From positions 309,833-373,832 of the forward strand of contig OZ244060.1 in NCBI GenBank assembly GCA_965215405.1: 64,000 nt of DNA, written 5' to 3'. Under the pieces are notes generated by a model. It had not been told where the DNA came from. It saw only the letters and a program-made list of their open reading frames with translations, and did not search any database. A program made the translations under genes and the position numbers. Positions 7,313-9,805 of this stretch are shown here, piece after piece. This DNA comes from Nitrospirales bacterium. GTDB lineage: Bacteria; Nitrospirota; Nitrospiria; Nitrospirales; UBA8639. Each line of letters begins with the position of its first letter. The first letter of the stretch is position 1.

Positions 7313-9805
7313 CTAGGACCTCTTTTCTTCTGTATTGTCTTCACCCCACACCCGCTCAATCGCCGCCCGAATCTTCTTCTCGAATCGCTCAATCAACTCA
7401 CGGTTGGCGGCGACCAGGGCTTGCTCGGCTTCGATTTCGGCGACGATGGCTTGCTGCACTTCCAGCGGCGGGATGGGAATGCGGAGTTCGCTGAACCTTG
7501 ACTTGGTGATTTCTTTGTAGGTTGCTCCACTGGCGTTGGACTTCATCACCGGAACCAATTTCGTCAACGTCCACGCAACATATTCCGGAACAACAAGGTT
7601 CGCGTCGTTAATTACGACGTTCTTGAAGCCCTGGTTGGTAGCAAGCGGTATTCTATTGATGCCAATGCGGCCAATCGTCGCTCTTGATGAAACGACGACG
7701 GAATTCTCCGGCAATATCTTTGCCGACGAAGTCCGTAAACCATTCTCGCTTATCGTTCGCTCCGTAGTGGTAATCTCCGTTACCAAGTCATCCGGCGGCA
7801 GGTCCACCAGCGTAGTCCAGGGTACGCCGCCATTCCAGTATTCCTTGACCCCTGATTTTGGAGTGCCCCCACTCTCTATTTGAAACAACTCCGTGTTCCC
7901 CAACGCCACCAGCGGCCACTCAGGATCAACCGCAATATGTGGCCGGTAGTTCTCCACTACCGCCCGCGCCCCGGCGACCACCCGCTGATAGCCCTCAATC
8001 TCCGCGACGATCTCACGCTGCACTTCCAGCGAAGGGAGGGGAATTGGGAAAGTCGCCAAATCCTTTGAATAGATGTGCGGTTGTCCCATTCCTACTTGAA
8101 GAGCATAAATATCCGATTGTCTGGCTTTGAGAACATGGAATAAGAATTTGCTGATCAGAAATTCTTGCTTGGGTTTGATTGTCGAGCAGTCTGATGCGAA
8201 TATCGGTTTATCAAAGTAGCTAACAAATCCTGCATAGGCTCCCGATGCGCTTACTGTAATTGTCTCACCTCTTCGGTTGGCTTTATTATGAAAAGAAGAA
8301 GGACTTTGACCACCAGCTATTACGGGAAATGGGCCTTCTACAATTTCTTTCCTAGTAATTGCAGTTCCTTTTCTGATTTCGCAGACTTCTCCAAGAGTCA
8401 CTATCTCAAACTTCGTGTGTATGACCTTATTCTCCCGATACCGCTCCCCGCTCAAATTATAGTCCCCCCCCCCCCCCCCCCCCCCCCCCCCCACGCTAGC
8501 GGCAATCTTCTCTTTCGCCACCACCTGCCCCAGCGTCGGCGCAAAATCGTCCAAAGATTCACTTGTCCGCAAACGACGCAGATACTCCGCAATCTCCGTC
8601 TGCACCCCCGGCAGGTCGTTCCTGTCAATCGGCCGGCGCTGCGCCCCCAGGTCGAAGCCGTCGTTCTCGACTTTGAAGAAAGCGATGCGATCCGTCTTTT
8701 TCGCCAGCGTTTTGTCCAGTAGCAGAATCGAAGTCTTAACGCCGGAATAGGGCTGGAACACGCCGGCCGGCAGTGAGACCACGGCAACCAGGTAGTCCTC
8801 GACCAGCATCTTGCGCAGTTGCCTGTAGGCGTTCTGGCTCTGAAACATGATGCCCTCGGGCACGATGATGCCGGCGCGGCCGGCCGGCGTCAGATGTTCG
8901 GCCATGTAATCGACGAACAACACCTCGCTGCGCCTGGACTGGACAGAGAATCGGCTGTGCGGACGGATGCCTCCCTTCGGCGACATGAACGGCGGATTGG
9001 CCAGGATGACGTCGGCGTACTCGTTCCACTTATCTTCGCTGGTCAACGTATCGTACTCGGCAATCCGCGGGTTGACGAAGCCGTGCAGGTACATATTGAC
9101 CAGGGACAGGCGCACCATATCGGGCGAGATGTCGTAGCCCTTGAAGCTGGCCGCGAGGCGGCCCCTGTCATCGGGCGTGAGGGTACTGTGGCCGTGCTCG
9201 TCTGCGTTGGCTTTGAGAATGTGCTTGTAGGACGAAATCAGGAAGCCGGCCGTGCCGCAGGCCGGGTCGAGAATAGTTTCGTCTTTCTTCGGGTCGATGA
9301 CGGCTACGATAAAGTCGATGACGTGACGCGGGGTGCGAAACTGCCCGGCGTCACCCTGCGAGCCCAGGACGGACAGCAGATATTCGAATGCGTCGCCCAG
9401 ACGTTCGGAGTGGTCGTAGGTGAACTCGTCAATGACCTTGAGAAAGGCCCGCAGAGTCTCGGGGTCGCGGTAGGGCAAAAAGGCGTTCTTGAAAATATCG
9501 CGGAACAGGGGTGGAATGCCGGGGTTCTCCGGCATCCTGGTGACGGCCTCGGCATAGAGGTTGAGCGTCTCGTGTCCACCCAGACCGGAGCGCATCAGCC
9601 TGGCCCAGCTATAGCCGGCAAACTCACCGACGAAGAACGTGCGAGTACCGCCCCACTCCTCCTCGCTCTGAACGTCCACGTCGTCCATGAACTTGTAGAT
9701 CAGGGCGATGGTAATCTGTTCGACCTGACTCTTGGGGTCGGGCACCTTGCCCACCAGGATATCCCTGGCGGTGTCGATGCGGCGTTTCGTGTCGGCATCC
9801 AACAT
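7313..9805 (-). CDS. hsdM: Type I restriction-modification methyltransferase fused to a complete two-TRD specificity subunit (HsdM-HsdS fusion)
   Basis: N-terminal HsdM (ILDPACGTAGFLISS motif I, ILANPPFMSPKGG motif IV, C-terminal DYNLSGERY). This is followed in-frame by two target-recognition domains, each ending in a conserved helix (LPSLEVQREIVAEIEGYQRV; PPLEVQQAIVAEIEAEQALV). Confidence 0.9.
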   Translation of the reverse strand: MLDADTKRRIDTARDILVGKVPDPKSQVEQITIALIYKFMDDVDVQSEEEWGGTRTFFVGEFAGYSWARLMRSGLGGHETLNLYAEAVTRMPENPGIPPLFRDIFKNAFLPYRDPETLRAFLKVIDEFTYDHSERLGDAFEYLLSVLGSQGDAGQFRTPRHVIDFIVAVIDPKKDETILDPACGTAGFLISSYKHILKANADEHGHSTLTPDDRGRLAASFKGYDISPDMVRLSLVNMYLHGFVNPRIAEYDTLTSEDKWNEYADVILANPPFMSPKGGIRPHSRFSVQSRRSEVLFVDYMAEHLTPAGRAGIIVPEGIMFQSQNAYRQLRKMLVEDYLVAVVSLPAGVFQPYSGVKTSILLLDKTLAKKTDRIAFFKVENDGFDLGAQRRPIDRNDLPGVQTEIAEYLRRLRTSESLDDFAPTLGQVVAKEKIAASVGGGGGGGGGDYNLSGERYRENKVIHTKFEIVTLGEVCEIRKGTAITRKEIVEGPFPVIAGGQSPSSFHNKANRRGETITVSASGAYAGFVSYFDKPIFASDCSTIKPKQEFLISKFLFHVLKARQSDIYALQVGMGQPHIYSKDLATFPIPLPSLEVQREIVAEIEGYQRVVAGARAVVENYRPHIAVDPEWPLVALGNTELFQIESGGTPKSGVKEYWNGGVPWTTLVDLPPDDLVTEITTTERTISENGLRTSSAKILPENSVVVSSRATIGRIGINRIPLATNQGFKNVVINDANLVVPEYVAWTLTKLVPVMKSNASGATYKEITKSRFSELRIPIPPLEVQQAIVAEIEAEQALVAANRELIERFEKKIRAAIERVWGEDNTEEKRS
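8464..8492. repeat. 29-nt homopolymer (C on plus strand, G on the coding strand) inside hsdM-S, encoding Gly9
   Basis: Counted directly: C run 8464-8492. The coding strand reads GTG (GGG)x9 GAC, i.e. ...IAASV-GGGGGGGGG-DYNLSGERY. Confidence 0.95.

Follow-up and report, generated by a model that had tools for sequence, protein, structure and literature searches.

Poly-G tracts within the open reading frame (ORF) of restriction–modification (RM) genes set expression or specificity by slipped-strand mispairing in the Type IIG gene cj0031 of Campylobacter jejuni and in the hsdS gene of the NgoAV system of Neisseria gonorrhoeae. Both tracts are kept across strains with graded lengths of about 8–13 nucleotides (nt), and in NgoAV the frameshift leads to a functional half-S with a new specificity. 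To our knowledge, nearly all work on phase variation concerns host-adapted pathogens, and a search of the literature on it yielded nothing relevant for Nitrospira-like organisms. Here we describe a 29-nt homopolymer in hsdMS, a fused type I methyltransferase–specificity gene of a Nitrospirales bacterium (contig OZ244060.1). The stretch of 64,000 nt which we analyzed is called the window, and positions given without a contig name refer to it.

The use of simple sequence repeats (SSRs) by type I systems has been surveyed in REBASE (Atack et al. 2019, PMC7383803). SSRs were present in 2% of the hsdM and 7.8% of the hsdS genes, environmental bacteria included. Examples are the ACAGC[10-40] repeat in hsdM and the G[n] tract in hsdS of Mannheimia haemolytica as well as the G[12] tract in hsdS of Salmonella (PMC7383803). 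The hsdM repeats are mostly found in the 5′ region of the gene, those of hsdS between the two target recognition domains (TRDs) (PMC7383803). The survey counted a type I gene as a candidate for phase variation when its hsd ORF held a mononucleotide tract of 9 nt or more, and within ORFs tracts of this size slip at about 1e-3 per division (PMC7383803). Fusions of HsdM with HsdS, termed 'Type IMS', have been engineered from EcoKI (Roberts et al. 2012, PMC3510504) and from S. aureus CC398-1 (Bower et al. 2018, PMC6158711). These engineered enzymes are active in vivo in both methylation and restriction (PMC3510504, PMC6158711).

A 29-nt homopolymer in a fused hsdM–hsdS gene

The plus strand of the window carries an uninterrupted run of 29 C at positions 8464-8492, which corresponds to G29 on the coding minus strand. 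The run lies within hsdMS, whose parts are the following.

7313..9805, minus strand: hsdMS, fused type I methyltransferase–specificity gene, 830 amino acids (aa), assigned with Pfam, PADLOC and PDB
About 8493-9805, minus strand: M part of hsdMS, residues 1-437
8464..8492, minus strand: G29 homopolymer, encoding Gly9, residues 439-447 of the 830-aa HsdM-HsdS
8433..8463, minus strand: the 31 nt directly 3′ of the tract, GACTATAATTTGAGCGGGGAGCGGTATCGGGA, encoding DYNLSGERYR, identical in the allele of contig L085 (see below)
7313-8463, minus strand: DYNLSGERY motif, TRD1, central conserved region, TRD2 and C-terminal helix of hsdMS

Nine GGG codons account for 27 of the 29 G; the other two are the third base of GTG (Val438) and the first base of GAC (Asp448). 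Across the tract the coding strand reads GTG (GGG)x9 GAC, and the protein reads ...KEKIAASV-GGGGGGGGG-DYNLSGERY. Only one further homopolymer longer than 8 nt is present in the window, a G17 run which is discussed below. From the base composition, 2e-11 runs of C or G of at least 29 nt are expected in the window. The tract is situated past the methylase core (Pfam N6_Mtase, residues 134-402, E=2.9e-48) and ahead of both TRDs. An earlier sequence-only reading of this DNA had described a 29-nt G/C run, in frame as Gly9 between KEKIAASV and DYNLSGERY, had placed it upstream of both TRDs of a fused hsdM-hsdS gene and had considered its length improbable by chance. The sequence and its translation, the domain positions from Pfam, PADLOC and PDB, and the expected number of runs bear out these three statements.

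The assignment of the protein to the type I systems is based on several matches. The M part contains ANPPFM, an NPPF motif, at residues 269-274. PADLOC recognizes in the single protein both MTase_I (E=1.9e-92) and Specificity_I. By sequence, HsdMS matches type I M and S subunits in the PDB, the HsdM chains with E values down to 1e-38 and the S subunit 1yf2 with E=2.5e-44. Pfam Methylase_S is found in two stretches with the best match at residues 465-603, and the second TRD, located by PADLOC and PDB matches, covers about residues 630-815. A direct repeat within the gene (7408-7485 and 7972-8049) represents the two conserved regions, and the TRDs of the relatives show mosaic identities. The locus combines a gamma-class N6-adenine methyltransferase, a specificity part with two TRDs and an adjacent HsdR with nuclease and SF2 (superfamily 2) translocase, as expected for type I. 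In contrast to the classical types IA-IE, M and S are not separate polypeptides but a single ORF of 830 aa, as in 120 of the 120 best homologues listed. On its domain content HsdMS fits the proposed 'Type IMS' variant. The 120 homologues, the best of at least 8000 scored, measure 760-880 aa, contain both domains in all cases and come from many phyla. Judged by these matches, the fused M-S is a large natural family with thousands of members, typically located beside an EcoAI-like hsdR, and is not peculiar to this genome.

In an AlphaFold2 (AF2) model residues 437-449 form an unstructured loop with low predicted local distance difference test (pLDDT) values between short helices; the model as a whole is of low confidence (mean pLDDT 62.5). 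Such a disordered loop would be compatible with a tolerated insertion of Gly9.

Predicted products of slippage

We simulated slips in the tract. With 28 G the protein ends ...G9-T-I-I-stop and with 30 G ...G10-L-stop. Termination is also immediate with 27 and 31 G, and all four lengths stop at residues 449-452, before both TRDs. Any length other than 29±3n stops translation within 2-4 codons. The out-of-frame product is an M-only protein of about 450 aa which carries neither the DYNLSGERY segment nor the two TRDs. Since every out-of-frame length leads to this M-only product, DNA recognition for methylation and for restriction would be lost together. The sequence-only reading was right in predicting an early stop within 2-4 codons and the loss of the S part; it had interchanged the products of the -1 and the +1 slip. 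Its further proposal that a single slip would disable methylation and restriction together gains support from the fused gene, the adjoining intact hsdR and the truncations.

In two respects the tract behaves as expected of a contingency gene. It is a mononucleotide repeat of at least 9 nt within an ORF, with a unit that is not a multiple of 3, and the changes of its length to 27, 28, 30 or 31 G lead to premature termination. Deduced from its length, the G29 run should be hypermutable and at least as unstable as the published tracts. The earlier view of hsdMS as a candidate phase-variable gene is plausible and has partial support. It agrees with the published limit of at least 9 nt for hsd genes; variation in tract length was found nowhere in the sequences compared. 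We also note that with 28 G the stop codon, TGA, shares bases with the TTG of DYNL, so that a separate S might be made by reinitiation. As there is no ribosome-binding site at this place and the DYNL motif would be lost, we keep this as a speculation.

The tract site in a conspecific strain

Contig L085, a SPAdes assembly with a coverage of 29.5, carries the hsdMS protein P0008. This contig is syntenic with the window over the N6_N4 methylase gene, nuoK/L/M/N, hsdR, vapBC, hsdMS, PDC-M38 and a CarboxypepD_reg gene, and its DNA is 97-99% identical to the window. Compared with the HsdMS of the window, P0008 has an identity of 97% in the M part, of 95% in the central conserved region and of 100% in the C-terminal 50 residues, but of only 18% in TRD1 and only 27% in TRD2. 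From these identities we take L085 to be a conspecific strain with swapped TRD cassettes. The homology in TRD1 ends past the 31 nt which follow the tract, and this is the boundary of the cassette exchange. Within one species, TRD cassettes are exchanged here at one chromosomal locus (window 7313-8432 versus L085 11347-12544).

At the tract site L085 reads GCC AGC GGG GAC TAT AAT (A-S-G-D-Y-N), that is G4, whereas the window reads GCT AGC GTG (GGG)x9 GAC TAT AAT. The tract is the sole large indel in about 16.8 kb of alignment between the window and L085, and it has identical flanks at either side. It amounts to exactly 27 nt, namely T plus G26, and is in frame. Since the conspecific strain has G4 and the alignment is otherwise intact, the tract is derived, strain-specific and in frame. 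It is a strain-specific insertion as opposed to a conserved contingency tract of graded lengths.

A putative switch of methylation and restriction

On balance, and with moderate confidence, we favour the view that the tract is real, young and hypermutable and that it acts as a stochastic ON/OFF switch of methylation and restriction together. We suggest the following course of events. In one marine Nitrospirales strain a 27-nt in-frame insertion or expansion would have arisen at the conserved single Gly codon before DYNLSGERY. This codon would be the hinge between the methylase module and TRD1 of the fused 'IMS' HsdM-S. The 29-nt run would slip often at replication. Lengths of 29±3n would give the full-length M-S with a flexible poly-Gly loop and thus the ON state. 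All other lengths would give the M-only protein of about 450 aa, which could neither recognize DNA nor recruit HsdR to its sites, and thus the OFF state for both activities. The population would then be a mix of RM-ON and RM-OFF cells. That the ON state is functional despite Gly9, and that there is a selective value of any kind, is what we infer. Since neither the conspecific strain nor any other homologue examined has the tract, we regard it as a recent mutational acquisition which would behave like a contingency switch, and not as a conserved selected phasevarion.

Several observations weigh against a switch. The conspecific alleles seen are G29 and G4 only, they carry different TRDs and there are no intermediates. 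As the insertion includes a T, the ancestral G4 has not simply been expanded. The site is length-invariant (...IAA-x-G-DYNLSGERY) among 34 aligned full-length orthologous hsdMS proteins with 60-78% identity and has a lone Gly in 34/34; at such a site Gly9 could impair the enzyme even in frame. Within the gene, no run of at least 9 G/C or of at least 11 A/T occurs in 80 genome loci (1.5 Mb). Likewise, runs of 11 or more G immediately followed by a degenerate DYNL..ERY motif were searched for in the metagenome contigs of the Joint Genome Institute (JGI), with 0 matches. The frameshift products predicted for 24, 25, 27, 28, 30 and 31 G are all absent from about 15 billion proteins in an exact look-up. 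The characterized phase-variable tracts known to us are about 7-20 nt long, and 29 nt is far longer. Finally, a long-read consensus leaves the exact length of the run uncertain, so that the assembly cannot vouch for the 'ON' frame. The assembler metaMDBG works in homopolymer-compressed space and restores run lengths only at polishing (PMC11392814). Given the metaMDBG-style names of related contigs, the in-frame consensus is not to be taken as established.

The exact HsdMS protein is recorded once and forms a one-member cluster, and the exact flanks of the tract, with a gap of 0-30 nt between them, gave 0 matches in the JGI metagenome contigs. In L081, the closest other relative, there is one Gly codon at the tract site. 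In a contingency gene the tract would be expected to recur at the corresponding site of the orthologues or of related strains, and this is not what we find. The sequence-only reading had named the tract length in relatives as a check, with an ordinary Gly/Ser linker in the orthologues as a result that would speak against phase variation. The outcome is mixed: the orthologues have no such linker but a single Gly codon, and the conspecific strain has G4 versus G29. We rejected a poly-Gly linker as a structural need of the fusion, as 0/34 orthologues carry one.

Could the tract be an artefact of sequencing or assembly? The true run would then be short as in L085, or of some other size, and the 29-mer would stem from the long-read consensus or its polishing. 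It is carried by one assembly only, the conspecific short-read assembly shows G4, and the metaMDBG-style names of the related Nitrospirales contigs again point to run lengths which are fixed only at polishing (PMC11392814). L085 is, however, a different allele with different TRDs, and its G4 is uninformative on the reads of the window strain. Apart from the tract, only a few indels of 1-3 nt separate the window from L085 over about 16.8 kb, and none of these is a typical homopolymer error in a coding region. With so few indels, the window consensus is of high quality. Moreover, the frame is preserved by the insertion, which measures exactly 27 nt, and neither flank is damaged. The other loci fetched contain one tract of at least 12 nt (C19) in 1.5 Mb versus two in the 64-kb window, and no tract of at least 10 nt was present in the related Nitrospirales loci fetched. 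As long tracts are so scarce in other assemblies, an artefact common to such assemblies is disfavoured. The poly-G tails of Illumina two-colour chemistry would require same-strand reads which end and begin in G-runs and meet at one codon; by this reasoning such tails cannot produce a G-run with genomic sequence at both sides on one strand. All in all, we hold an artefact to be quite unlikely. Across the tract the GC content falls from 0.60 to 0.45 and that of the third codon positions (GC3) from 0.80 to 0.43. A chimeric assembly at the tract was considered and rejected, as a like drop of GC3 is present at the M-to-S joint in 8/8 relatives and the gene order is reproduced in L085 and L081. On these sequence comparisons a chimeric join is unlikely.

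The tract might also be real and yet not be a switch. It would then result from runaway slippage, neutral or slightly harmful, in a defence gene which the cell can spare and which is turning into a pseudogene, and it would be in frame by chance (1 in 3). Decay of this kind would fit a strain-specific tract which is missing from every relative examined and which is inserted at the length-invariant position of the family. It would also fit the nearby defence genes which look decayed, such as the ORF beside the N6_N4 methylase which is frameshifted versus L085, and the G17 run which leaves its own gene out of frame. On the other hand, the remainder of hsdMS as well as hsdR are intact without a further frameshift or stop, and in its M part HsdMS has 97% identity with the protein of the conspecific strain. 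In addition, so long a tract would revert as readily as it breaks and would thus act as a switch, selected or not. We consider decay unlikely. We think it very improbable that the tract serves for recoding, that is, that slippage of the DNA polymerase, the RNA polymerase or the ribosome on the nine GGG codons provides free HsdM beside HsdM-S. This would supply the second M subunit of an M2S1-type enzyme, and the engineered EcoKI M-S fusion indeed required added free HsdM for its nuclease activity in vitro (PMC3510504). Its authors proposed proteolysis or stalled translation as the source of free M (PMC3510504). The location of the tract at the M|S boundary and the stops within 2-4 codons in both shifted frames would suit recoding too. 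But thousands of natural fused homologues, the conspecific allele included, do without the tract, and the shortened product loses the invariant DYNLSGERY segment. The stochastic switch remains the explanation which we prefer.

A second tract and dispersed repeats

A further observation counts in favour of the switch, namely the layout of the gene which harbours the second long homopolymer of the window.

33037-33053: G17 on the plus strand (C17 on the coding strand), in a membrane-protein gene at 31702-33071, minus strand, about 455 aa

The run is found six codons past the ATG at 33071, and this ATG is preceded by a good ribosome-binding site, AGAGGAAG. With C17, translation from this ATG ends after 53 codons; a protein of 455-456 aa would result from 15 or 18 C. 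The membrane protein has more than 6000 representative homologues, many of which have a C-terminal domain of about 110 aa repeated; no Pfam family was matched. Judging from tract position and reading frames, this is a classical contingency-gene layout, here in the OFF state.

In the related Nitrospirales contigs L083 and L084 the gene content of this region is different. The window also contains dispersed intergenic repeats of 75-160 nt with the hairpin CCCCTCCTT-ACAA-AGGAGGGG, which resemble repetitive extragenic palindromic (REP) sequences or miniature inverted-repeat transposable elements (MITEs). Copies are located at 1216-1773, 31313-31558, 33961-34040, 37149-37605 and 58671-59037, and copies in the same orientation are present on both sides of the membrane-protein gene.

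Two observations on tracts in other contigs may be added. The C19 tract mentioned above is located at positions 3078-3096 of L004 (a Limisphaerales metagenome-assembled genome, OZ251460.1), about 7 kb upstream of the hsdMS homologue of that contig. At this site two minus-strand ORFs in different frames overlap, and it may be another frameshifting tract. The CarboxypepD_reg gene (window 2243-3154) has in L085 a G8 run (20074-20081) in the ribosome-binding region, shortly before its start codon, versus GGGGGAG at window position 2239.

Genes around hsdMS

The genes next to hsdMS are listed here.

10813..13335, minus strand: hsdR, EcoAI-like, 840 aa as listed, with HSDR_N nuclease and ResIII/SF2 motor
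10376-10609, minus strand: vapB, forms a toxin–antitoxin pair with vapC, between hsdR and hsdMS
9921-10379, minus strand: vapC/PIN, forms a toxin–antitoxin pair with vapB
5029-6162, plus strand: AAA_15/AAA_21 ATPase, PADLOC candidate system PDC-M38 A/B
6166-6795, plus strand: DUF3226 gene, PADLOC candidate system PDC-M38 A/B

In hsdR, Pfam recognizes HSDR_N/HSDR_N_2 and ResIII. The protein matches the EcoAI/FtnUII family model with E=8e-65, which is below the equivalog cut-off of that model. It aligns end to end with 74% identity to the hsdR adjoining the hsdMS of the relative L082 and is full-length by this comparison. The hsdR of L081 is called at only 641 aa versus 840-862 aa in the window, L082 and L085 and looks truncated or split. 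The vapBC pair is probably a neighbour outside the RM system. The gap between hsdR and hsdMS is variable: it contains vapBC in the window (9921-10609) and in L085, a 216-aa ORF and a PDDEXK_3 gene in L081 (5391-6483), and is empty in L082 (9992-10001). Going by these gene orders, the gap is an insertion hotspot.

The PDC-M38 pair is convergent with hsdMS and is also present beside the closest hsdMS relatives (L081, L085). Beyond this pair, 64 nt (4749-4812) repeat the 3′ end of hsdMS (7341-7404) with 80% identity. Direct repeats of the sequence coding for the C-terminus of HsdS thus stand on either side of the PDC-M38 genes, and a matching bracket is found in the conspecific L085 (12416-12516 and 15012-15108). 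The copy may be the remnant of an older hsdS end or the footprint of the arrival of PDC-M38.

The defence island borders nuoN. Inside the nuo operon a low-GC stretch (18887-20193), flanked by nuoJ (20247-20768) and nuoK (18495-18800), contains the N6_N4 DNA methylase gene and a neighbouring ORF. This ORF has 222 aa in L085 and 105 aa in the window after a 1-nt deletion at about 18862; the shortened ORF may be an inactivated restriction partner. The SecA protein encoded in the window shares 80% identity with its counterpart in Candidatus Nitronereus thalassa and 72-78% with proteins named as Nitrospirales or Nitrospirota.

Comparison with known systems

If the tract is indeed variable, hsdMS would be a candidate phase-variable RM system in Nitrospirota, in a free-living or symbiotic lineage of nitrite oxidizers. 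It would also be the first tract of this kind known to us at the hinge of M and S in a naturally fused type I enzyme. Together with the G17 gene, the tract would suggest that the strain keeps a few genes under the control of slippage. Cells which turn RM-OFF at random would allow phases of DNA uptake and would have an altered susceptibility to phages, in a population which otherwise changes its specificity by swaps of TRD cassettes. Should the tract prove to be an artefact or a dead end, what is left is a type I defence island of the ordinary kind.

Compared with NgoAV, the consequence of a frameshift is different, as the truncated product is devoid of any TRD. With the SSR-containing hsd genes of REBASE the locus shares a repeat within the ORF, a unit not divisible by 3 and changes of length which lead to frameshift and truncation, with a predicted ON/OFF or altered methyltransferase. 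It differs from them by the position of the tract at the M|TRD1 joint of a fused gene, where one slip removes both TRDs. Other differences concern the length of 29 nt as opposed to G[12] in hsdS of Salmonella, the lack of a length series across strains and the host, which belongs to an environmental lineage of nitrite oxidizers and is not a host-adapted pathogen. With the engineered Type IMS enzymes the locus has in common that HsdM is joined in frame to an HsdS with two TRDs and that HsdR is separate. Those fusions are artificial and free of repeat tracts, whereas the HsdMS described here is natural and carries the tract.

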